A DNA stretch of 47,985 bases, taken from Patescibacteria group bacterium UBA6241 (lineage in GTDB: Bacteria; Patescibacteriota; Minisyncoccia; Phycocordibacterales; Phycocordibacteraceae). The notes below the pieces were generated by a model, which was not told where the DNA came from, did no database searches, and saw only the letters and a program-made list of their open reading frames with translations. The DNA lies in NCBI GenBank assembly GCA_002441425.1, contig DJWB01000005.1, positions 86,705 to 134,689 on the forward strand, read 5' to 3'. Both the position numbers and the translations under genes were made by a program. This document shows positions 20,620-47,139 of the stretch, in pieces. Positions within the stretch are counted from its first letter, which is position 1; every line of letters begins with the position of its first letter.

Positions 20620-22302
20620 ATGGAGCAGCTACTACGTGAAGCGGTTCAGAAAGCACTAGAAGAGCTCGGGGCACCTGAGACAGTTTTTGCTATTGAGTGG
20701 CCAGCAGATCTTGCGCATGGGGACTTTGCTACAAATGCTGCACTTGCAAGTGCAAAGATACTTAATCGCGCTCCTCGCGAGATTGCGGAAGACCTGGTCC
20801 AGAAACTTAAGGCCTCACTTGGAGATCTTGCTGCACGTATTGAGGCTGCGGGTCCGGGCTTTGTAAACATCACGCTTGCGCACGAGACCATCACCAAGCA
20901 GATTGAAAACGCAGGAACAAATGAGTCCTGGGGAACACACACCTACAACACAGGGAAGAGTGTGATGATTGAGTACTCAAACCCAAACCCATTTAAGGAG
21001 ATTCATATAGGGCACCTCATGAGTAATGTCGTAGGAGAGGCACTCTCCCGGGTCCTTGAAGCATCAGGTGCTCGTGTTGTACGCGATACCTTCGGAGGAG
21101 ATGTTGGGCCACATGTAGCGAAAGCGCTCTGGGCACTGCGAAAGAAAGGAATCTCTGATATCGGGAATGCATCTGAGATTGGAGCAGCATATATACAGGG
21201 ATCAAATGCATACGAGCAAAGTCCTGATGCAAAAGAGGAAATAGATGCGCTCAATACACGCATCTATGACATCGTTGCCGCGCAACTATCCTCTGAGACC
21301 TTGTCTGCGGAAGACCGCGACATTCTTTCGCTCTGGAGAAAGGGGAGGGAAGTATCTATGGAAGAGTTTGCACGAATCTTTAAGATTCTTGGCACAAGCT
21401 TTGATTATATTTTTTATGATAGCGATACAACTAAAGGAGGTATCTCAGTTGTGCGCGATGGACTCGCGCGCGGCATCTTTGAGCAGAGTGAGGGGGCAAT
21501 TATTTATCGGGGAGAGAAGAAAGGATTGCATACACTCGTATTCATAACTTCTCGCGGAACTCCTACCTATGAGACCAAAGATATTGGTCTGGCTTTTCTT
21601 AAAGAAGAGCGATGTTCTACAGACGAGGTAATTATCATTACGGCTATTGAGCAGGTAGGACATTTTGAAGTAGTACTCGCGGCACTTGAGGAGATTGCGC
21701 CTCTGCTTGCGAAGAAGACGACACACGTACCGCACGGTTTACTTCGCCTTACCACCGGCAAGATGTCTTCGCGCAAAGGAAATATCATTACAGCCTCAGA
21801 ACTTCTTGGAGATATGGTGCAATCGGCAAGTGAAAAGAACGCAGATCCGCTTGTTGCAGAGCAGGTTGCTGTTGCTGCGGTTAAGTACATGATTCTACGC
21901 CAAGCCCCGGGCGGAGATATTGTCTTTGATCCAGAGAAGTCGCTCTCTTTGGAAGGAGACTCAGGTCCCTACCTCCAGTACGCACTGGTGCGCGCAAAGT
22001 CTGTTATTGCACAGAGCTCAGTTACTCCTAATACAAAGGACGCACCCGAAAAGCCGTACACGCTTGAGCGACTCCTTACAAGATTCCCTGAAATAGTGCG
22101 TAAGGCAGAGGGGCTGCGAGCGCCGCATCTTATAACGCAGTATCTTACCCAGATAGCGGGGGAGTGGAATTCATTTTATGCACAAGAGCGCATTAGAGAT
22201 GGAGCAAACGAAGCGTACAAGCTTGTTGTTGCAACAGCGTTTGTGCGCACTATGGAGCGAGGCCTCAGTCTTCTTGGAATTCCGGTTCCTGAGAAGATGT
22301 AG
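20620..22302 (+). CDS. argS: arginine--tRNA ligase
   Basis: IEYSNPNPFKEIHIGHLMSNVVGEAL (HIGH), GKMSSRKGN (KMSKS-like), 560 aa. Confidence 0.95.
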   Translation: MEQLLREAVQKALEELGAPETVFAIEWPADLAHGDFATNAALASAKILNRAPREIAEDLVQKLKASLGDLAARIEAAGPGFVNITLAHETITKQIENAGTNESWGTHTYNTGKSVMIEYSNPNPFKEIHIGHLMSNVVGEALSRVLEASGARVVRDTFGGDVGPHVAKALWALRKKGISDIGNASEIGAAYIQGSNAYEQSPDAKEEIDALNTRIYDIVAAQLSSETLSAEDRDILSLWRKGREVSMEEFARIFKILGTSFDYIFYDSDTTKGGISVVRDGLARGIFEQSEGAIIYRGEKKGLHTLVFITSRGTPTYETKDIGLAFLKEERCSTDEVIIITAIEQVGHFEVVLAALEEIAPLLAKKTTHVPHGLLRLTTGKMSSRKGNIITASELLGDMVQSASEKNADPLVAEQVAVAAVKYMILRQAPGGDIVFDPEKSLSLEGDSGPYLQYALVRAKSVIAQSSVTPNTKDAPEKPYTLERLLTRFPEIVRKAEGLRAPHLITQYLTQIAGEWNSFYAQERIRDGANEAYKLVVATAFVRTMERGLSLLGIPVPEKM

Positions 22303-22387
22303 ATAAGTCTCCTTGCGGGCAGGTGTGCTTAGGAGTAGGGTGTCCAGATGGCTCTACATTAGGGCCTGTTATCTGGAGGAATAGCTA

Positions 22388-22657
22388 GTGCGTAAGAACA
22401 CTTCGGCCCGCGGTCCGCGCGGGAAAGCATATCGGAAAAATCGCCAGAAGGCGGACGTGGTCCAGCGGACCTGCAAACAGCTGGGCCTGCGCGACATCGC
22501 GCTTTTCCGCAAGGCCTTTGAGTGGCGCTACGGGTTCAAGGACCTGCACCGCGCCGCCGCCGACCTCAAGGTCTATCTGCAGACCAACGGTCGCCGCCTG
22601 AAGGCCTATGTCCTGCGCTACATCCAGTCCCTGGACGTCGCGCCGGTTCCGGCCTGA
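22388..22657 (+). CDS. 89-aa basic orphan protein, high-GC islet
   Basis: GGAGGA SD 7 nt before a GTG start, with its own terminator. GC is about 67% on the sampled line. No family recognised. Confidence 0.5.
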   Translation: MRKNTSARGPRGKAYRKNRQKADVVQRTCKQLGLRDIALFRKAFEWRYGFKDLHRAAADLKVYLQTNGRRLKAYVLRYIQSLDVAPVPA

Positions 22658-22682
22658 TTCCAGACCAGTAACGATCTTTACT

Positions 22683-22720
22683 ACGGCCAGCTGCTTTCAG
22701 CACTGGCCGTTTTCATTTTT
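22683..22720 (+). terminator. intrinsic terminator of the orphan gene
   Basis: ACGGCCAG...CTGGCCGT stem followed by TTTCATTTTT. Confidence 0.7.
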
Positions 22721-22748
22721 GTACGCAAAACGCTAGGATACAGAGACT

Positions 22749-25700
22749 ATGGCGGATACTGAAAAAACTGAGGCGGTGAAGCGAGAGGAGGAGATACTGG
22801 CATTTTGGGAACGAGAGCAGATTTTTGAGAAGTCTCTCAAGAAGCCAAGCCCAAAGGGAACTTTCGTATTTTACGAAGGTCCCCCAACTGCAAACGGACG
22901 CCCTGGCGTGCACCACATGGAATCTCGTTCTTTTAAGGACGCGATACCGAGATACAAAACAATGCGCGGGTATTCAGTACCGCGCCGTGCTGGATGGGAC
23001 ACACACGGTCTTCCTGTTGAACTTGAAGTTGAGAAACAGCTAGGATTCTCCGGCAAAAAGGATATTGAGACCTACGGCATTGCAGAATTTAATAAGAAGT
23101 GTCGGGAGAGCGTACTTGCATACATTGAAGAGTGGGACCGCTTCACGAAGCGTATTGGGTATTGGGTAGATCAAGAGAAGGCGTACTTCACCTTTAACGC
23201 TCCATTTATGGAGAGCGTGTGGCACATTATGAAAAAGGTATCGGACGACGGACGCCTCTTTAAGGATTACAAAGTGGTGCCCTGGTGTGCTCGTTGCGGA
23301 ACGGCACTTTCTTCTCATGAACTTGCGCAGGGGTATGCAGATGTTAAAGACCTCTCTATAACAGCAAAGTTTGAACTCGTTGATGAGCCAGGTACATACT
23401 TGCTCGCGTGGACTACAACTCCATGGACACTGCCAGGCAACGTGGGGCTCGCAGTAGGAGAGAAGATTTCTTATGGCACCTATGAAAAAGAAGGGCAGCG
23501 AGTGGTGCTCGCAACAAGTCGTGCAGGCCAGCTTGGAGAGGGGTGGAACCTCGTCAAGGAGGTTCTTGGCACAGAACTTATAGGAAAGGCGTACAAGCCA
23601 CTCTATGCGTACGTGCGTGCACTTGCTCCAGAGAGCGAGCAGTCCAAGTTTGAAAAAGCTTTTCAGGTGTATCCAGCTGACTTCGTAACAACCGAGGACG
23701 GTACAGGAATTGTGCATACGGCAGTAATGTACGGACAAGAGGATTTTGAACTCGGGCAAGCAGTAGGACTGCCCAAGGTGCATCTTGTTGCTCCAGATGG
23801 GAAATTTATTGCAGGTACTGAATTTCTTGAGGGACGCTTTGTGAAAGATCAGGAGGTAGCTGTAGATATTCTTAAGGACCTCCAGGAGAGAGGACTCTTC
23901 TTCTCTAAAGAGAATTACTCACACAGCTATCCATTCTGCTGGCGCTGTAAGACTCCGCTTATTTATTACGCACGCGATTCTTGGTACATACGCATGCAGG
24001 ACTTGCGAAGCTCTTTGCTTGCCGCAAACGAGTCAGTGCATTGGGAACCGAACCACATTAAAGAGGGAAGAATGGGTGAGTGGCTTAAGAATGTGAAAGA
24101 TTGGGCAATCTCACGTGAGCGTTACTGGGGAACTCCATTACCCGTCTGGCAAAACGAAGATGGCACTGAAAGAGTAGTTGTTGGATCAGTTGAAGAGTTA
24201 CGAAAGAAAACAAAGACGAATAACAATCGTTACTTTGTAATGCGTCACGGCGAGTCAGAGAATAATGCAAAGGGCATTCTTGATTCAACTAACGAGAACC
24301 GTTGGCCACTTACTGAAGAGGGAAGGGGTCAAGTCAAAGCAGGCGCTCAAGATCTAAAGACAAAACAGATTACACATATATACGCGTCTCCCTTTGAGCG
24401 AACTACACAAAGCGCAGAGATTGCCGCAGAAGAACTCGGAATTCCTAAAGAGCAGATCGTGTATGACGAACGTCTTGCTGAGTTTGCGTTCGGCAAGTTC
24501 CACGGTGGAAGTCACCAGGCTTTTATGGATTGGCGAGCTGACAAAAAATACGATGACGCAGTTCCAGGCGGCGGTAGCTATCAAGATGCAAAGAATCAAT
24601 TCGGCGCGTTCTTGTATGACATAGATACAAAGCATAAGGATGCAGTGGTACTACTCGTTACGCATGGCGTAGGAGTTGAAACACTCCGCTCTATTGCAAC
24701 GGGATCTGGACCTGAAGAGTCTAAAGAACTTGCGTACGTGAAGATTCCTGAAAAGGGAGTTGCTGAGGAGATTGAGTTTGTGCCACTTCCGCACAACGAT
24801 CGGTATGAGCTAGATCTGCATCGCCCATACATTGATTCAGTTGTTCTTGTGAGCGAACAGGGAACAGAACTTCGTCGTGTATCTGAAGTTATGGATGTCT
24901 GGTTTGATTCAGGCGCCGTTCCTTTCGCTCAAGATCATTATCCTTTTGAAAAACATACAGGATATCCTGCAGACTACATCTCTGAGGCAATAGACCAAAC
25001 GAGAGGATGGTTCTACACAATGCTTGCAGTTGGAACACTTATGGGTAGAGGAGCTCCGTACAAGAATGTTATCTGTCTCGGCCACTTGCTAGACGAAAAG
25101 GGTCAGAAAATGTCCAAGTCTAAGGGGAATGTGGTTAACCCATGGGATGCCATAGAACAGTACGGCGTTGATACGTTGCGGTTCTGGATGTATAGCGTGA
25201 ATCAGCCAGGAGACTCAAAGAACTTTGATGACAAGACTGTTAAGGAAGCCGCTCGTGTTATTTCTTGGCTTGATAACAGTGCGAAGTTCTATGCACTTTT
25301 CAAGGACGGTTCTCTCAAGGCAGAGAAGACGGCAATGGATGAGTGGATGGGCGCTCGTGTTGCGGCAACAGTACGAGAAGTAACAGAAGCAATGGATCAG
25401 TATCGTGTCTATGAAGCTACTCGTTCAGTCGCACACCTCATTGAAGACTTGTCGCAGTGGTATGTGAGAAGAATTAGAGATCGTGCTCGTGAGGGAGATC
25501 AGGCCGCACTCGCCACATTACGTAACGCACTCCGCTCTGTAGCACTTCTCATGGCACCTTTCGCCCCCTTTATTTCTGAAGAGGTATTCCAGCTTGTGCG
25601 AACAGATTCAGATGCGCAGAGCGTCCACCTAAGTGACTGGCCTCAGACAAAACAGGGAATGCTTTGGACTTTGCAGGGAGGCAAGAGTAAAGAAGATCGC

Positions 25701-26153
25701 TGCATGTCAGAAATGAAGCGTGTTCGTGCGCTCGCTTCTGAGGCACTCATGCTCCGCCAGAAAGCAAACAGTAAAGTACGACAACCTCTCGCCCGGCTCT
25801 CCATTCCAGGAAGCGTATCTGAAGGATTGGCACAAATCCTAAAGGAAGAGGTAAACGTGAAGCATGTTGAAATGAATGCCGCTGAGCTTGAGCTTGATAC
25901 AGTACTTACTCCAGAGTTAGTAAGAGAAGGAGACGTGCGTGCATTCATGCGTGCTGTAGCGGAAGCACGCAAAGAGGAAGGATATGAACCAAAGGATGTG
26001 GTGCAGGTGACTGTCAGCAAGGAAGCAGAGGATACTTTGCGAGGAGAGACTTTCCCTGGCGTACGCGAAGTGTCCTTTGGTAAGGGAGGTGCGTATAGTG
26101 CAGAACTTTCTTTTGGAAAAGTGGCTTTCTCACTTTCGTCTAATGCGTCATAA
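22749..26153 (+). CDS. ileS: isoleucine--tRNA ligase (type 2, Thermus-like) carrying an internal histidine-phosphatase-like domain
   Basis: PPTANG...[15 protein letters not shown] editing domain, [19 protein letters not shown]. 1134 aa. Confidence 0.95.
24201..24812 (+). other. inserted histidine phosphatase (PGAM/CobC-like) domain within IleRS
   Basis: [11 protein letters not shown] (RHG motif), [35 protein letters not shown]. It lies between GSVEEL and DLHRPYID, which are only ~15 aa apart in Thermus IleRS as I recall it. Confidence 0.75.
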
Positions 26154-26691
26154 ATACGTAACGAATGCGATTGTGCTCCAGAGGACGCCTCTTGCAGAAG
26201 CGGCAACACTCGTCACTCTCCTCACAGAAGACTTCGGACTAATTCGCGCACGCGCTGAGGGCTTACGGAAACCAGGAGCAAAACTTTCGGGTGCACTTCA
26301 AACACTTTCGCAATCAGAGGTAACACTCGTGCGCGGTAAGCATGGGTGGCGCATATCGGGTGCTCTCCTGGATCACAATTGGTTTAAAGAATTTTCTCCA
26401 GAAACGAGTGAGCGTGTGGGCAGGGTATCAAGTCTCATACTGCGGCTTGTCCAAGGGGAGGGACAAGAATCTCTCTATGCACTTTATGTGGAATTTATAC
26501 ATAAAGTAAAAGGTGCGGACCTTGCGATGGGAGACACTCTGGAGTGTCTATATGCGCTAAGAATCCTCTCTGATCTAGGTCTAGATGCCGGAGTCCTTCC
26601 TGAGATTTCTGAGGAGACAGAACTTTCTAGTGACACACGCCGAGAGATTGTGCTGCGGATTAATCGTGGAATTGCAGCCTCTGGCCTATAG
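26143..26691 (+). CDS. recO: DNA repair protein RecO
   Basis: Start moved to [43 protein letters not shown] (OB-fold N-terminus typical of RecO). 11-nt overlap with ileS. Confidence 0.75.
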
Positions 26692-26720
26692 GCTGAATGC
26701 ATACGGTATACTGATGCGTA

Positions 26721-28610
26721 ATGCCTGAGGAGTTGCCAGACCAGAACGCAGACATGAGCACCCTTGAACGGTTGCGTAGGAAACTCTATGCGCAAAATGC
26801 GCCTGAGCAATTCTCAGTCCCTGAACTCGCACAGGAACCTGTTGCTGAACCAGTCGCAGCATGGGCACCTCCCGCAGAGCCTGTATCTAAAAAGAAACCA
26901 AGAGTCTCTTGGGCAGTTATCTTTCTGGGTGTTGCTGCAGTATTTTTTATACTCGCTGTTGCGGGAGCTGCATATTTCCTTATTTTTGGTGCGCGTTCAG
27001 TATCAACAGACCGCGTCATTATTTCCATTGATGCACCCACTGCTATTGCAAGTGGAGACTCGGTTTCATTACTTGTTTCAGTACAAAACAACAACCCAGT
27101 ACAGATACATTCAACATTGCTTGCAGTTGATTTCCCAGAGAGCACCCGTTCAAGCGAGTCAATTGATCTTCCTTTAAATCATTTTGAGGACACGCTTGGG
27201 GATATTAGTGCAGGAGAGCAAGGGCAGCAGACTGTTCGCGCAGTACTGTTTGGCGCGGAGAATGAACGCATAAGTATCCCGGTACGATTTGAGTATCGTG
27301 TTGAAGGTTCTAATGCAGTCTTTGTTAAGGAAACGACGTACGAATTCGCAGTTACGTCCTCACCACTTAGTGTGCGTGCAGAAGCGGTAACAGAAGCAAC
27401 AGCGGGGCAACCACTTACTTTTGCTGTAACGGTTCGTTCAAATGCAAAAACTCCTGTAGAGCACGTGGCTGTGCTTGCGCAGTATCCTTTTGGATTCACA
27501 GCTCGCAAAGGGGAAGGTCCGTTGTTCCCCGTAGGTACGCTAGCGCCTGGAGAAGAAAAGACGGTAACCGTTACGGGAACTCTATCGGGAGAGAGTGCAG
27601 AACAAAAGGTATTTAGATTCACTGCAGGAACACGAAGCAATGAAGATGCTCCTTTGCTTGCGGTTTCATACAGCACCGCAGAAGCAGCAGTTACGCTTGG
27701 AAAGCCGTTCCTCTCTACGTCCTTATCAATTAATCATGACGGAGGAGCCGCGCCTGTAGTAACTGCAGGCTCTCAGGTACAGGCAATTCTTTCTTGGGCG
27801 AATACGCTCTCAACACCAATTCTTGATGGAGAGATTTTGATAAAGCTTTCTGGCGCTGCACTTGATACAAATTCAGTGAGCGCGTATGGAGGTTTCTATC
27901 GTTCTTCAGACACAACACTAATCTTTAGCAAAGAAACAAACAGCGAGCTTGCGCGTCTTGCGCCTGGAGACACAGGGAACGGCTCATTTACATTCTCAAC
28001 TAAGAGTCCAGCAGCACTAGTTGGAATGAAGAATCCTACGGTAACTGCCACGGTTTCAGTGTCAGGAAGAAGAGTTGGTGAATCAAACGTACCGGAGAGC
28101 GTATCTTCTTCACTAGTGCGCACTATAAAGATCGGTACAGATCTCTCCCTTAAGGCGCGTACGCTATATAGCATCGGAGCATTTAAGAACACTGGTCCAT
28201 GGCCGCCTGTCGCAGACAAGGAAACGACATATACGATTGAGCTCGTACTCGCAAATACACTTAACTCAGTAGCCAACACATCTGTTAGCGCAACACTGCC
28301 TTCATATGTGTCGTACACAGGAGCAGTGAGCCCTAATGATGGGTCGGTCGTATATAACGCTACCTCACGCCGCATTACCTGGAGCGCGGGAGAGGTTCCT
28401 GCCGGAGGAGGAACCCGAACGGTGAGCTTCCAGGTCAAGCTGTTGCCAAGTGTTTCGCAGCGGGGTACAAGTCCTATACTTATGTCCGCACAGCAGATAA
28501 CAGGAACAGATAGATTTACACAAAAGCCTATCTCGTTTACAAGTCCTGAAATAACTACGCAGACTCCAGCCGATCCGCAGTTCCAGGCGGACTATGGCAC
28601 CGTGCGGTAA
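26721..28610 (+). CDS. large membrane-anchored surface protein with repeated beta-sandwich-like segments
   Basis: Charged N-terminus, one TM helix (WAVIFLGVAAVFFILAVAGAAYFLIF), then ~530 aa rich in T, S and V. Confidence 0.5.
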   Translation: MPEELPDQNADMSTLERLRRKLYAQNAPEQFSVPELAQEPVAEPVAAWAPPAEPVSKKKPRVSWAVIFLGVAAVFFILAVAGAAYFLIFGARSVSTDRVIISIDAPTAIASGDSVSLLVSVQNNNPVQIHSTLLAVDFPESTRSSESIDLPLNHFEDTLGDISAGEQGQQTVRAVLFGAENERISIPVRFEYRVEGSNAVFVKETTYEFAVTSSPLSVRAEAVTEATAGQPLTFAVTVRSNAKTPVEHVAVLAQYPFGFTARKGEGPLFPVGTLAPGEEKTVTVTGTLSGESAEQKVFRFTAGTRSNEDAPLLAVSYSTAEAAVTLGKPFLSTSLSINHDGGAAPVVTAGSQVQAILSWANTLSTPILDGEILIKLSGAALDTNSVSAYGGFYRSSDTTLIFSKETNSELARLAPGDTGNGSFTFSTKSPAALVGMKNPTVTATVSVSGRRVGESNVPESVSSSLVRTIKIGTDLSLKARTLYSIGAFKNTGPWPPVADKETTYTIELVLANTLNSVANTSVSATLPSYVSYTGAVSPNDGSVVYNATSRRITWSAGEVPAGGGTRTVSFQVKLLPSVSQRGTSPILMSAQQITGTDRFTQKPISFTSPEITTQTPADPQFQADYGTVR

Positions 28611-28619
28611 TCTGAATAT

Positions 28620-29996
28620 ATGGTCTCCCTAGAAACAATCATCTCATTTGCAAAGCGCCGCGGGTTTATATTCCCAGGCTCTGAAATATATGGAGGCTTT
28701 GCAGGAACCTATGACTTCGGTCCACACGGCCTTGCACTCAAGAAGAATATTGAGCAGCTTTGGTGGCGTCGTTTCGTTGAGCTGCGCGACGATATGTATG
28801 GAATTGATTCAGCAATTTTGATGAATCCCCGTGTATGGGAGGCATCTGGCCATACCACCACATTTAACGACCCGCTCGTTATAGATCAGAAGACTCAGAA
28901 GAGGTATCGCGCGGACCATTTGCTTGAGGAGGCAGGAATTGATCCAACAGGTATGAGCATTGAGCAAATGAGCGCAGCACTCAAGGAGAAGGACATACAG
29001 AGTCCAGAAGGGAATCCTCTTTCTGAGGTGCAGCAGTTCAATATGATGTTTAAAACCTCAGTTGGTTCTGTTGAGGGGGGAGAGATGCCTGCGTACCTGC
29101 GTCCAGAGACTGCGCAGGGAATGTTTGTTAACTTCAAAAACATTATTGACTCGTACCACCCAAAACTTCCATTTGGTATTGCTCAAATTGGACGGGCTTT
29201 CAGAAACGAGATTGCGCCAAGAGAGTTCATTTTCCGCGTACGAGAACTTGAGATTATGGAGCTCGAGTATTTCTTGGATGAAAAGATGTGGGAAGAGCAA
29301 TTTGCCTACTGGCAAAAGGAGATGCATGCCTGGTTTGCAGAACTTGGCTTTAGCGACGAAGACCTAAAGGAGGTTGAAGTATCTGCAGAAGAACGTGCAC
29401 ACTATTCAAAACGCACTTTGGATTTCTACTTCAAGTATCCTGGAGGTTTTAAGGAGATTGGAGGACTTGCATACCGTACAGATTTTGATCTTAAGAATCA
29501 TGAAGAGGCGTCTGGGTCTGAACTAAAGTATCTAGATCAAGAGAACAACACAAAGAGTACGCCGCATGTCCTTGAGCCAACGTTTGGTTTGGGAAGACAC
29601 GTACTCGCAGTGCTCGTTAAAGCGTATGACACAGACTCTCTTGGAGGAGAGGAGAGAGTTGTGTTGCGGCTGCTTCCTAAGCTGGCTCCGGTTAAGGCAC
29701 TCGTGTCACCACTTCTTAAGAACAAGCCAGAGCTCGTAGCAAAGGCACAGGAGGTGCGCGCGCGACTTCAGCAGGTGCATCCAGCCATTGCGTGGGACGA
29801 TAACGGCAATATAGGAAAGCGCTATAGACGCCAGGATGAAATAGGTACGCCGTTTTGTATCACGGTAGATTTTGACACTTTGGGAGAGTCACCAGAGCTT
29901 AAGGACACGGTAACGCTTAGACATCGCGATACAGGGGAGCAAGAGCGCCTCTCAATAGAAGAGGTAGCAACTCGCTTACAAGAGGCTCTTCGGTAG
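28620..29996 (+). CDS. glyQS: glycine--tRNA ligase (dimeric class II type)
   Basis: KRRGFIFPGSEIYGGFAGTYDFGPHG...YLRPETAQGMFVNF...FRNEIAPR. Confidence 0.95.
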   Translation: MVSLETIISFAKRRGFIFPGSEIYGGFAGTYDFGPHGLALKKNIEQLWWRRFVELRDDMYGIDSAILMNPRVWEASGHTTTFNDPLVIDQKTQKRYRADHLLEEAGIDPTGMSIEQMSAALKEKDIQSPEGNPLSEVQQFNMMFKTSVGSVEGGEMPAYLRPETAQGMFVNFKNIIDSYHPKLPFGIAQIGRAFRNEIAPREFIFRVRELEIMELEYFLDEKMWEEQFAYWQKEMHAWFAELGFSDEDLKEVEVSAEERAHYSKRTLDFYFKYPGGFKEIGGLAYRTDFDLKNHEEASGSELKYLDQENNTKSTPHVLEPTFGLGRHVLAVLVKAYDTDSLGGEERVVLRLLPKLAPVKALVSPLLKNKPELVAKAQEVRARLQQVHPAIAWDDNGNIGKRYRRQDEIGTPFCITVDFDTLGESPELKDTVTLRHRDTGEQERLSIEEVATRLQEALR

Positions 29997-30035
29997 TTCA
30001 TAGGAGATTTCGGCCGCTGTGCTAGTATTTTCTGT

Positions 30036-31085
30036 ATGCACAAGAACGTCTCCATAACCATTACGCCGGGTACCATTATTACCGCAATTCTTATCGGAGC
30101 AGCCGCTTTTGCACTTTGGACACTTCGTGACTTGGCCCTCCTGGTACTTACGGCAGTTGTTATCGCTTCAGCGATTGAGCCGGGAGTTTCTTTTTTCAGA
30201 CGAAAGCATATTCCACGCGTAGTTGCCGTAACAGGTATGTATGTCGCGGTGTTCGGTTCGTTGTTCGCTATTGTGTATTTCTTCTTGCCTCCGGTGTTAG
30301 ACGATGCACAGGGCTTTCTATCTACGGCGCCCGAGTATCTGGATACACTGAACATTCCAGCACCGTTCTCAGCATTAACTACAACTGCGCGTACAGCTGC
30401 AGCGCCAGATCAAGCACAGTCCATTTTTGACACCTTGTTTGCGTTCCAGTCTGCATTTGCGGACACAACTGGAGGAGCGGTGCGCGTATTGTCTACATTC
30501 TTTGGAGGTATCTTTGCGCTTATTCTGGTAGTGGTACTTTCGTTTTACTTTGCAATTCAGGAGACAGGTATTGATGACTTTGTACGACTTATTACGCCCG
30601 CAAAACATGAGGACTATGCCGTGGGTCTCTGGCTGCGTGCGAAAAAGAAGATAGGGCAGTGGATGCAGGGCCAGCTTTTATTATCCATAATTGTGGGGGT
30701 AATAGTGTATTTAGGGCTTCTTATCTTGGGAGTCCCGTACGCACTTTTGCTCGCCGTTATTGCGGCCATTCTTGATCTGATTCCTATCTTCGGTTCTTTC
30801 ATTGCAGGTATCTTGGGAGTGGTTGTAGCTTTTGCATCTGGAGGAGTTACGCTTGCCGTAATTGTGGCGGGTCTGTTTTTCATCGTGAATCAGTTTGAGG
30901 CACATCTTATTTACCCGCTCGTTGTAAATAAAGTGGTAGGTATTCCGCCGCTCTTAGTTATTTTGGCGCTTATTGTTGGCGGTAGCCTCGCAGGATTCTT
31001 GGGAGTACTCCTCTCCATTCCTTTAGCTGCAGCCCTTCGCGAGTTCTTGGGTGATGTTGAGCGCAGAAAGCACATTCATACGTAG
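30036..31085 (+). CDS. AI-2E/PerM-family transporter
   Basis: 8 predicted TM helices, ...LDLIPIFGSFIAGILGVVVAF... motif. Confidence 0.75.
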   Translation: MHKNVSITITPGTIITAILIGAAAFALWTLRDLALLVLTAVVIASAIEPGVSFFRRKHIPRVVAVTGMYVAVFGSLFAIVYFFLPPVLDDAQGFLSTAPEYLDTLNIPAPFSALTTTARTAAAPDQAQSIFDTLFAFQSAFADTTGGAVRVLSTFFGGIFALILVVVLSFYFAIQETGIDDFVRLITPAKHEDYAVGLWLRAKKKIGQWMQGQLLLSIIVGVIVYLGLLILGVPYALLLAVIAAILDLIPIFGSFIAGILGVVVAFASGGVTLAVIVAGLFFIVNQFEAHLIYPLVVNKVVGIPPLLVILALIVGGSLAGFLGVLLSIPLAAALREFLGDVERRKHIHT

Positions 31086-31099
31086 GTTTCCTGTACGCA

Positions 31100-32527
31100 A
31101 TGGCTCGGTACATCACCACAACACTTCCGTACGTGAACGCAGACCCGCATATAGGGTTTGCGCTTGAGATTGTTGAAGCTGATGTCCTTGCACGGGCATG
31201 GCGTTTACGCGGAGAAGAAGTTTTCTTCTCTACAGGGACAGATGAGCACGGGCAGAAGATATGGGAGGCAGCAGAGAAAGCAGGGAAGAGTGCTCAGGAG
31301 TATGTTGATCATTACGCACACGAAGTAGAGAAATTGAAGGGTGTCTTGAATCTTTCAACTGATAATTTCATACGTACAACCGATTCTGTACATCAAGAAG
31401 CTGCACAAGAAATGTGGAAGCGGTGTATGGACGCTGGAGATATCTATAAGAAGTCATACACAGGCCTGTATTGTGTCGGCTGTGAGGCATACAAGACAGA
31501 ACGAGAGCTTGAGGATGGGCACTGTGTCTTGCATCCTGGTCTTACTCCTGAAGAGCGTACGGAAGAGAACTACTTTTTCGCGTTTTCTAAGTACGCAGAC
31601 CAACTTCTCTCTATGCTCTCAGCCCCTACATCAATAGTTCCTGAGTGGCGTCGCGAAGAAGCGATACGTTTTGTGCAAGAAGGTCTAGAAGATTTCAGTA
31701 TTTCAAGAAAGAAAGAAAAACTCTCATGGGGAGTACCTGTTCCGGGGGACGACACGCAGGTTATGTATGTATGGTTTGATGCACTTACGAGTTACATCTC
31801 AACACTTGGATGGCCTAAGGATAGGGAAGGTCTGTATGAAAAGTTCTGGACTAGTGGAACAACGGTGCAGATGGCTGGCAAAGATCAGGTCCGCTTTCAG
31901 TCTTTAATCTGGCAGGCAATGTTGTTCTCTGCGGGTATCAAGAATACGGATAGCATTTTCTATCACGGCTTCATTAATTCTGGCGGGCAGCGCATGTCTA
32001 AGTCTCTCGGGAATGTAATCAGTCCCTACGAACTTGTTGAGAAATACGGAACAGAAGCTACGCGATACCTGCTATTGCGGCATGTACACCCCACAGAAGA
32101 CACAGATGTTACCTGGGAGCGTCTTAACGAGTGGTACACCGCAAACCTGGTGAATGGTGTGGGGAATCTCGTGGCACGCATTATGAAGCTTGCAGAGGCT
32201 CATCTAGAGCAGGGACTTCCTCATCCTGAAGAGGAAGAGTTTGACTCCGTGTACTGGGCATCTTTGGATGCATTTGAGTTCAATCAAACCATGGATATGG
32301 TCTGGGCAAGGATTCAGGGACTTGATGAACGCATTACGAAAGAAGAGCCATTTAAGCTTGTGAAATCTGATCCTGATGCGGGCAAGGAAAACATCAGACA
32401 GCTTACGCGCGAACTCTATACTATTGGTCGCTTACTCGCGCCCCTCATGCCTGAGACAAGCGCCCATATTAAGGAAGCAGTTCTATCAAACACGAAGCCA
32501 GAGAATCTATTCCCACGTCTTGCATAG
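31100..32527 (+). CDS. metG: methionine--tRNA ligase (short form, no C-terminal tRNA-binding domain)
   Basis: TTTLPYVNADPHIGFALE (HIGH), CVGCE...C..H knuckle, RMSKSLGN. Confidence 0.95.
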   Translation: MARYITTTLPYVNADPHIGFALEIVEADVLARAWRLRGEEVFFSTGTDEHGQKIWEAAEKAGKSAQEYVDHYAHEVEKLKGVLNLSTDNFIRTTDSVHQEAAQEMWKRCMDAGDIYKKSYTGLYCVGCEAYKTERELEDGHCVLHPGLTPEERTEENYFFAFSKYADQLLSMLSAPTSIVPEWRREEAIRFVQEGLEDFSISRKKEKLSWGVPVPGDDTQVMYVWFDALTSYISTLGWPKDREGLYEKFWTSGTTVQMAGKDQVRFQSLIWQAMLFSAGIKNTDSIFYHGFINSGGQRMSKSLGNVISPYELVEKYGTEATRYLLLRHVHPTEDTDVTWERLNEWYTANLVNGVGNLVARIMKLAEAHLEQGLPHPEEEEFDSVYWASLDAFEFNQTMDMVWARIQGLDERITKEEPFKLVKSDPDAGKENIRQLTRELYTIGRLLAPLMPETSAHIKEAVLSNTKPENLFPRLA

Positions 32528-46996: not shown

Positions 46997-47139
46997 TTGC
47001 ACAGAACACGGGCTCGTTGACAGACGAATATGCAAATAGGTAATCAACGCCGTATGGTGTGGACTTTGTTCATGCCATGCGGATTGAATATTGCAGAATC
47101 ACACAATCGTTAGAACAGTGGTGTTCAAGTTTCCGCACA

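Follow-up and report, generated by a model that had tools for sequence, protein, structure and literature searches.

An ileS gene with a nested phosphatase domain

The window analyzed here is a stretch of 47,985 nucleotides from contig DJWB01000005.1 of Patescibacteria group bacterium UBA6241, and it contains an ileS gene for a type-2 isoleucyl-tRNA synthetase (IleRS) that carries a histidine phosphatase (HP) domain nested within its catalytic Rossmann fold. The open reading frame (ORF) of this gene, ileS::hp, runs on the forward strand without interruption for 1134 codons, and the segment at issue, 24201-24812, encodes residues 485-688. An earlier reading made from the letters of the window alone (the sequence-only reading) had claimed a PF00300 domain within an IleRS, and both halves of that claim are borne out. 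The insert taken by itself (residues 488-686) matches PF00300 (His_Phos_1) with 107.6 bits against a cut-off of 21.7 (E=8.4e-31; positions 2-169 of the 194-position profile), the whole protein matches the same profile at residues 496-661 (E=2.1e-29), and the host scores 835.4 bits with the isoleucine-tRNA ligase equivalog model TIGR00392, which has a cut-off of 621.4. IleRS domains are recognized by Pfam on both sides of the insert (PF00133, PF08264 and DUF5915). The gene and those features that concern the insert are listed below. Conservation counts refer to 118 full-length relatives that are 62-99% identical overall, 8c8w is the structure of P. megaterium IleRS2, CP3 is connective peptide 3 of the Rossmann fold and AF2 denotes AlphaFold2.

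22749..26153 (+): ileS::hp, type-2 IleRS with a nested histidine-phosphatase domain, 1134 amino acids; complete, intact ORF
24147..24209 (+): first half of CP3, residues 467-487, former zinc-knuckle hairpin (467-476, Cys lost) and then a helix; aligns to 'VWECEGCQHQV...' of 8c8w
24210..24233 (+): N-terminal linker and start of the domain, TKTNNNRY (family consensus TKKSGNxY); defined by conservation
24234..24779 (+): core of the branch 1 histidine phosphatase, residues 496-677; defined by PF00300, AF2 and Foldseek
24243..24251 (+): RHG motif R499-H500-G501 with the nucleophilic His; R and H in 118/118, G in 105/118, otherwise A or S
24399..24401 (+): R551, second phosphate-binding Arg; 118/118, pairs with the corresponding Arg of PhoE
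24480..24482 (+): E578, general acid/base Glu; 113 E and 4 D among 118, aligns to the Glu of PhoE 'lrEihlG'
24663..24668 (+): H639-G640, second catalytic His motif; H in 118/118, G in 117/118
24780..24806 (+): fusion-specific C-terminal linker VPLPHNDRY, residues 678-686; defined by conservation
24807..24872 (+): second half of CP3, residues 687-708, second Cys pair lost (699-708); aligns to 'SIELHKPYVDDVQLTCPVCSGE' of 8c8w

The insert as a histidine phosphatase

The hallmark motifs that the sequence-only reading attributed to the superfamily are all present as quoted. They occur in order along the protein, with RHGESENN at 499-506 followed by the segments 546-556, 574-586 and 635-644, and with the two former zinc-knuckle segments (467-476 and 699-708) on the outside. 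The catalytic residues align residue for residue with those of PhoE and constitute the catalytic core of the superfamily. That these residues are intact had been noted for the window protein, and the same is true of the family, in which R499, H500, R551 and H639 are without exception and E578 is E or D in 117 of 118 sequences. The insert is at the same time the least conserved segment of the protein, with a mean column conservation of 0.57 versus 0.83-0.85 in the flanking Rossmann-fold segments and a pairwise identity of 45% versus 70% in the flanks. Invariant catalytic residues within the least conserved segment are the mark of an active site at work in a domain that is otherwise free to evolve. 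The insert is under purifying selection, with pN/pS values against the closest relatives of 0.17 for the insert and 0.12 for the rest of the gene; these values are approximate given that synonymous sites are saturated, and they are quoted in place of dN/dS proper, which is unreliable under such saturation. Judged by its residues, the phosphatase is apparently complete and catalytically competent.

Structural modeling leads to the same superfamily. An AF2 model of the insert alone (pLDDT 93.2, pTM 0.90) adopts the alpha/beta fold of the superfamily and is matched by Foldseek with probability 1.00 to many solved members. Its fold neighbors are about equal, with TM values of 0.70-0.77, and include PspA (4IJ6), GpgP (4QIH), PhoE (1H2E), TIGAR and a riboflavin-pathway phosphatase. 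By sequence the nearest proteins are PhoE (1EBB, E=1.8e-8), PspA, TIGAR and a small phosphoglycerate mutase of S. pombe. The domain is acidic, having a mean net charge of -8.

Models for individual specificities do not claim the domain. For phosphoglycerate mutases of the cofactor-dependent type (dPGM) it scores 77.6 with NF038349 (dPGM_arch; cut-off 225), with only model positions 3-99 matched, and 16.6 with TIGR01258 (cut-off 81.7). The C-terminal tail that caps the active site of dPGM is also missing, as the domain ends at its last strand (~677) and passes straight into the linker; free-standing homologues end at the same point. The remaining cut-offs are likewise missed for PspA (55.1 < 350), CobC (62.8 < 162.9), GpmB (53.5 < 261) and SixA (TIGR00249, 31.8 bits for the insert alone and 30.8 for the whole protein against 74.5). 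Identity with dPGM, PspA, CobC or SixA was therefore rejected on scores below curated cut-offs. With every NCBIfam equivalog cut-off missed, the domain is filed in branch 1 of the superfamily and in no characterized specificity family.

The insertion site

The sequence-only reading counted 204 amino acids between the motifs VVGSVEEL (residues 477-484) and DLHRPYID (689-696), and there are exactly 204. Alignment to 8c8w pairs query residues 9-487 with residues 10-477 and query residues 687-1044 with residues 485-851, such that ~199 amino acids stand where 8c8w has a loop of 7 (query 487 = 477, query 687 = 485). In 8c8w this loop is flanked by 'VWECEGCQHQV...' and '...LTCPVCSGE', and at the equivalent places of the window protein both Cys pairs are gone. 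Their loss and their former location had been correctly described; the Thermus-type layout given in the same reading, with the Cys pairs between VVGSVEEL and DLHRPYID, was mistaken since the Cys pairs lie outside both motifs. None of the 118 relatives has a Cys at these CP3 positions. The AF2 model preserves the CP3 hairpins on either side of the insert, with the first half consisting of strands at 466-468 and 475-477 and a helix at 481-487. The loop that holds the domain joins the two halves of the CP3 zinc knuckle, within the Rossmann fold. The suggestion that the domain had come in place of the knuckle is not quite right, since it lies between the knuckle halves and related fusions keep the Cys pairs. 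Zinc is bound by the CP3 subdomain of the T. thermophilus enzyme, whereas the IleRSs of C. albicans and S. aureus bind none there (PMC7191050), so this zinc site is variable among IleRSs in any case.

Both junctions are conserved in the family. In the N-terminal linker N493 is invariant and K489, G492 and Y495 are nearly so, with 'GNxY' also present in free-standing homologues. In the C-terminal linker P679, P681, H682 and N683 are invariant or nearly so, and this element ('VPLPHNExY') is missing from the free-standing homologues, which stop after the last strand. GC content is continuous across the insert (0.45-0.48 versus 0.45-0.50 in the flanks), and recent foreign DNA was rejected for want of a composition break. 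No flanking repeats or hairpins were found at the insert, the junction residues are T/K and E/D where an intein would need a nucleophilic C/S/T, and Pfam finds no intein/Hint domain in the protein; an intein or mobile in-frame element was rejected on these grounds. A role as an anti-phage defense component was also rejected, as PADLOC defense models give no match for the insert and only one marginal, unrelated match for the homologue P0190 (E=4.6e-4).

The host synthetase

The AF2 model of the full protein has a mean pLDDT of 88.2 and a pTM of 0.80, with blocks of 91-98 in the HP region. Its top fold match is P. megaterium IleRS2 (8c8w, target-normalized TM 0.80), it superposes best on IleRS2 structures, and phmmer pairs 8c8w with the window protein at E=2.6e-223. 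The landmarks of the synthetase outside the insert are as follows.

22905..22916 (+): class I signature motif, non-canonical G-V-H-H (residues 53-56); from alignment to 8c8w
23286..23297 (+): first Cys pair of the CP-core zinc site, C180 and C183; both invariant in 116 sequences
23937..23948 (+): second Cys pair of the CP-core zinc site, C397 and C400; C397 invariant, PFCWRCK at 395-401
25107..25121 (+): KMSKS loop, residues 787-791; K787, M788, S789 and K790 invariant

The CP-core zinc site (C180, C183, C397, C400) is thus retained in the window IleRS. The signature and editing-site residues are intact as well, with H56 invariant and G53 and H55 nearly invariant in the family, and with the CP1 editing motif at 221-231 and H323 also invariant. 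The GVHH of the window protein pairs with the GVHH of the 8c8w mutant and not with the wild-type HVGH. This G-V-H-H, in place of H-x-G-H, is conserved across the fused clade and occurs in some split relatives, in which hp and ileS are separate genes (L089, L102, L108). GXHH is documented as a natural, active IleRS2 variant that experimentally gives mupirocin hyper-resistance (PMC10485003). The cut-offs of the mupirocin-resistance IleRS models are missed (MupB 700.8 and MupA 680.5, each < 1900). Taken by its motifs, the synthetase looks fully functional, and it is probably the only IleRS of the organism.

Distribution of the fusion

The sequence-only reading had suggested a search for the same architecture in other IleRSs of the candidate phyla radiation, and it recurs broadly. 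PF00300 occurs together with IleRS domains in 120/120 of the best homologues from a collection of 5.8 billion proteins. BLAST of three query segments places the N-part, the insert and the C-part within one ORF at 80/80 of the best loci; 67 of these are complete, and contig ends are all that truncates the other 13. A scan of species-representative genomes with insert profiles yields at least 571 confirmed relatives, not all of which need be fusions as some of the patterns also match free-standing genes. Named sources are Kaiser-, Nomura-, Vogel- and Zambryskibacteria and 'Paceibacterota', that is, the Parcubacteria group of Patescibacteria, and public annotation calls the homologues 'class I tRNA ligase family protein' or 'isoleucyl-tRNA synthetase'.

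Free-standing hp genes and their partnership with ileS

A profile search of 1.84 billion representative proteins recovers free-standing proteins of ~190 amino acids that share the whole domain, from the 'GNxY..RHG' start to the last strand. To describe their genomic context, genomes were scanned with a single free-standing protein as the query and 10 loci were sampled. At 9/10 of these loci hp precedes ileS, directly adjacent in 8 and separated by a CYTH gene in 1; at the remaining locus the two are unlinked. The hp stop and the ileS start overlap (ATGA) in 4 loci and lie within 4 nucleotides of each other in 3 more. The block found at split loci reads ArgRS - HP - IleRS - RecO - DUF11/CLIPPER protein, which is the order in the window with hp placed inside ileS. 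The window members of this block that flank ileS::hp are:

20620..22302 (+): argS (ArgRS), upstream member; PF03485, PF00750 and PF05746
26077..26691 (+): recO, downstream member; PF11967 RecO_N

ArgRS is also a neighbor at split loci L088, L089, L103, L104, L105, L107, L108 and L109, and RecO at L088, L089, L102, L103, L105 and L107. Split-type IleRSs keep the CP3 Cys pairs, as read for L088, L089, L103 and L107, and the closest of them (L089 at 50% identity, L102 and L108) share the GxHH motif. From the viewpoint of IleRS, an upstream HP is present at 6/20 non-nested Patescibacteria loci for which upstream sequence is covered. As an outgroup control, an upstream HP is found at 0/49 ileS loci from other groups (31 Firmicutes, 10 Archaea, 2 Dictyoglomota, 1 Chloroflexota, 1 Riflebacteria and 4 metagenome-assembled genomes (MAGs) without a clear label). 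The partnership is, as gene order indicates, older than the fusion.

Two sampled loci depart from the usual order. The intervening gene of L104 (4570-5160) codes for a CYTH protein (triphosphate tunnel metalloenzyme) and begins 2 nucleotides past the hp stop; the IleRS of this locus is short (818 amino acids) and is without the DUF5915 C-terminus. The gene at L106 (4001-4597) is the sole sampled free-standing HP gene away from ileS. Its neighbors are MazG-like, SLFN-type helicase and DUF3800 genes, and downstream is the usual DUF7619/CLIPPER surface-protein gene, such that the block looks as if ileS and recO were lost or moved.

Repeated insertion and order of events

Related fusions differ from the window protein in the state of the zinc knuckle. 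Both CxxC pairs are still present around the insert in P0146, P0195, P0228, P0223, P0239 and P0213, and P0146 keeps them yet has the linkers and the GxHH motif of the window clade itself. Cys loss in the subclade of the window is thus secondary. We infer that adjacent genes came first, followed by insertion between the knuckle halves and then by loss of the zinc ligands, an order suggested by the distribution of these states among the sequences.

The family has also been used more than once within a protein. Two tandem HP domains occupy the CP3 site in the IleRSs P0176, P0186, P0251, P0141 and P0211. In P0158, P0187, P0256 and P0233 a second HP, besides the CP3 copy, stands directly before the anticodon-binding domain, between it and the stem-contact region (query-equivalent residues ~853-863). 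Tandem double-HP proteins of the same family also exist as free-standing proteins of 360-450 amino acids (P0204, P0220, P0227, P0238, P0246, P0257, P0261 and P0264).

Valyl-tRNA synthetase (ValRS)-type proteins carry the domain as well, at the CP3-equivalent position and at a further site. For example, P0244 is a ValRS with a Val_tRNA-synt_C arm and two HP domains, and P0121 has at least 4 HP copies and is 'ValRS-like' only by its 22% identity to the query. A Gracilibacteria MAG (L081 2941-6417) codes for a 1159-amino acid ValRS with one HP ~80 residues before KMSKS, which is the CP3-equivalent position; upstream of this valS there is no free-standing HP gene.

The IleRS fusions differ among themselves in linkers and in signature-motif types. 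A rough neighbor-joining tree of HP domains, which is without support values and serves as a guide only, nests the inserts of P0195 and P0228 within the clade of free-standing proteins and sets the ValRS inserts apart in a clade of their own. These differences together with the placements in the tree suggest that several independent insertions are likely.

Other features of the window

Four aminoacyl-tRNA synthetase (aaRS) genes lie within 12 kb (20620-32527). Only IleRS has an insert; the ArgRS, the MetRS and the class II synthetase of the window have no HP insert, and there is no free-standing HP gene elsewhere in the window. The two aaRS genes further downstream are:

28620-29996: class II aaRS with an HGTP anticodon domain
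31100-32527: short MetRS, 475 amino acids

If recO started at the listed TTG (26077), its first 77 nucleotides (26077-26153) would also be the end of ileS; the true recO start probably lies further downstream. A six-frame hidden Markov model search finds no hp-gene remnant in the gap between the ArgRS and IleRS genes (22303-22748). This gap includes a GC-rich island at 22388-22657 (0.57-0.63 versus ~0.48 nearby) that holds an ORF for a very basic protein of 89 amino acids, which has no Pfam or PADLOC match and is not an hp remnant; a terminator-like hairpin and a T-run follow it. A 23S rRNA gene begins at 47137 and runs off the end of the window (47985). No 16S rRNA gene is found in the 47 kb upstream of this start, and the rRNA genes are thus apparently unlinked.

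Proposed function and alternative explanations

The comparisons show an apparently intact phosphatase that is obligately co-produced with, or tethered to, IleRS in a large clade, and to ValRS in another lineage. Operon, nested fusion and convergence, together with a clean outgroup control, speak for a functional link and against an accident, and we infer that the phosphatase serves the synthetase or aminoacylation. On balance we lean towards the explanation that the window codes for a functional type-2 (GxHH) IleRS carrying in CP3 a tail-less, PhoE/PspA-like phosphatase that is derived from the upstream hp gene and works with the synthetase on a small phospho-compound. The nested domain would descend from the free-standing hp gene that in sister Patescibacteria lies directly upstream of ileS and is often translationally coupled to it. 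In the clade of the window, hp would have become an in-frame insert that ensures 1:1 co-production and physical tethering, with the CP3 zinc ligands lost afterwards. IleRS would carry out its normal activation, transfer and CP1 editing, and the HP domain would hydrolyze a phosphomonoester (or a terminal phosphoanhydride) via a phospho-His500 intermediate, with R499, R551 and H639 holding the phosphate and E578 acting as the general acid.

A small diffusible phospho-compound tied to aminoacylation flux appears a better candidate for the substrate than a precisely positioned macromolecular end. This is favored by a copy number that varies from 1 to at least 4, by the use of three sites, one of them far from the path of the acceptor end, by the acidic surface and by the tail-less PhoE/PspA-like fold. 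Our leading guess is a by-product or inhibitor from adenylate chemistry, of a nucleotide or pyrophosphate type. The sequence-only reading had put forward nucleotide, Ap4A-type or tRNA-end phosphates as candidates. The CYTH triphosphatase gene between hp and ileS at L104 hints at the same by-product theme.

Several observations weigh against this explanation. The domain misses the equivalog cut-offs for all known specificities. No HP is found within 3 kb at 14/20 of the other Patescibacteria IleRS loci, and IleRS thus has no general need of an HP. Genes may also be neighbors by historical accident where genomes are streamlined and highly syntenic, and recO and a surface-protein gene belong to the same block. 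Additionally, the strongly conserved linkers of the window clade suggest a fixed orientation, which would also fit a geometry-dependent role such as dephosphorylation of the tRNA 3' end.

A stronger version of a link to tRNA charging holds that the phosphatase is a third catalytic activity of a class Ia synthetase and acts in cis on the phosphorylated form of its own substrate or product. Possible examples are a tRNA end with a 3'-phosphate or pyrophosphate, and an inhibitory phospho-nucleotide or pyrophosphate formed at the synthetic site. We entertain this version as a tentative possibility.

Unlikely, though deserving of serious consideration, is a neutral or co-expression-driven fusion, in which a housekeeping phosphatase unrelated to aminoacylation was rearranged from its place beside ileS into a permissive CP3 loop and the two activities remain independent. 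CP3 varies in structure among IleRSs and is a tolerant element (PMC7191050), the syntenic block also includes the unrelated recO and DUF11 surface-protein genes, and both the fold and the sequence of the domain resemble those of a generic, broad-specificity phosphatase. The 14 Patescibacteria loci without an adjacent HP and the L106 gene away from ileS are also in keeping with it. However, the same family entered the same CP3 loop in the ValRS of a different Patescibacteria class, and it apparently entered IleRS more than once, as indicated by linkers, by HIGH types and by the tree, where P0195 and P0228 fall among the free-standing proteins. Additional copies and the second insertion site also speak against a neutral event, the ATGA overlaps indicate stoichiometric coupling already in the split form, and an HP upstream of ileS is absent from all 49 loci of other groups. 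An association that is repeated and independent of lineage makes chance hard to credit.

Healing of tRNA ends is an improbable alternative. Here the HP would strip a 2'/3'-phosphate or pyrophosphate from the CCA end, for example after damage by a nuclease or toxin, and thereby restore a chargeable end. The exclusive association with tRNA-binding class Ia synthetases (IleRS and ValRS) and the position of the insert at the periphery of the catalytic domain on conserved, rigid linkers would suit such a role, and a tail-less HP should, from its fold, have an active site open enough for a bulky phospho-end. But copies numbering from 1 to at least 4 at three sites, one of which is beside the anticodon-binding domain, fit poorly with reaching A76, and the domain has the negative charge noted above. 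This variability of copy number and site, together with the acidic surface, is a mild argument against a geometry-dependent role at the tRNA end. Moreover, there is no match to known defense models, the ArgRS, MetRS and class II aaRS of the window are without an insert, and to our knowledge no member of the histidine phosphatase superfamily acts on RNA ends.

Some members of the superfamily, such as PGAM5, Sts-1 and SixA, are protein phosphatases. The domain might accordingly act on the synthetase itself (for example on a kinase-modified KMSKS region) or on another protein, or its phospho-His state might tune IleRS to the metabolic state. Tethering would favor action in cis, and there is a weak likeness to the SixA model (31.8 bits for the insert alone versus 74.5). 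We regard such a phospho-switch as very improbable, since the SixA cut-off is missed, the nearest neighbors in sequence and fold are small-molecule enzymes, and no kinase partner is seen in the conserved neighborhood.

Finally, a misassembly, frame artifact, intein, mobile insertion or dead structural remnant that replaced the zinc knuckle can be given next to no credence, for although both linkers are unusual and the invariant 'HN' of the C-terminal one superficially recalls intein C-termini, the ORF is intact with continuous composition, 120/120 homologues and 80/80 single-ORF loci are alike and the same architecture recurs in hundreds of independent assemblies, there is neither a Hint match nor a C/S/T after the linker (the residue is E/D) nor a flanking repeat, and the catalytic residues are invariant under purifying selection, so that none of the refutations anticipated in the sequence-only reading applies and the data exclude an artifact, an intein and a pseudoenzyme.

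Comparison with known systems

The window protein shares with type-2 (eukaryote-like, mupirocin-resistant) IleRSs, such as P. megaterium IleRS2 (8C8U/8C8W) and T. thermophilus IleRS (1ILE), the full set of domains: Rossmann fold, CP-core zinc, CP1 editing, CP2, CP3, KMSKS, anticodon-binding domain and DUF5915. It differs from them in that a 199-amino acid enzyme domain interrupts CP3, from which all four Cys ligands are gone. PhoE (1EBB/1H2E), PspA (4IJ5/4IJ6), GpgP (Rv2419c, 4QIH) and TIGAR have the same RHG...R...E...HG set in a core of ~180 amino acids without the dPGM tail. Unlike the insert, however, they are free-standing. Their identity to it is 21-25% and the family cut-offs are missed, and consequently the specificity of known phosphatases is not transferable to the domain.

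Branch 1 HP domains have been joined to nucleic-acid or nucleotide enzymes in Actinobacteria before, as in the bifunctional RNase H/acid phosphatase (NF005567, PRK07238) and the MutT1 Nudix-HP protein (NF052459). NF005567 covers the whole insert with its model positions 172-344 at 68 bits (cut-off 326), and NF052459 gives 21 (< 475). These fusions differ in being end-to-end and not nested, and their partner is not a synthetase. A precedent for a nested second catalytic domain in IleRS is the CP1 editing domain of class Ia synthetases, which is universal and acts on aminoacyl-tRNA. An IleRS with another added domain, 'ileS_w_GNAT' (NF040702), is comparable by its NCBIfam name alone; GNAT is a different domain and the window protein misses the cut-off (314 < 1999).

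The sequence-only reading knew of no description of such a fusion and none was found by us; a link between a synthetase and a histidine phosphatase is not mentioned in those portions of the full-text literature, or of recent papers on IleRS evolution and structure, that were accessible. Extra nested catalytic domains in synthetases are known from CP1, and what is new is a synthetase with a nested phosphatase as a conserved and recurrent partnership.

Few enzymes are as conserved or as well studied as the bacterial aminoacyl-tRNA synthetases, and it is rare to find a new catalytic domain in one. An apparently active phosphatase within an essential synthetase, in what appear to be hundreds of species of a major uncultivated radiation, is therefore of general interest. 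Operon, nested fusion and convergence provide strong comparative evidence for an undescribed link between phosphate-ester hydrolysis and tRNA charging, and the partnership is directly testable with recombinant protein. The relatives also provide a natural series for the nesting of a domain within an ancient fold, from a split gene to an insertion with the zinc site kept and on to one with the zinc site lost. If the phosphatase does act in cis, it would add to tRNA charging a quality-control or repair step that is new and that arose repeatedly in Patescibacteria, in IleRS and in ValRS. More broadly, its study could uncover a housekeeping or repair reaction not yet known in translation, or show how ultra-small symbiotic bacteria handle the by-products of aminoacylation.

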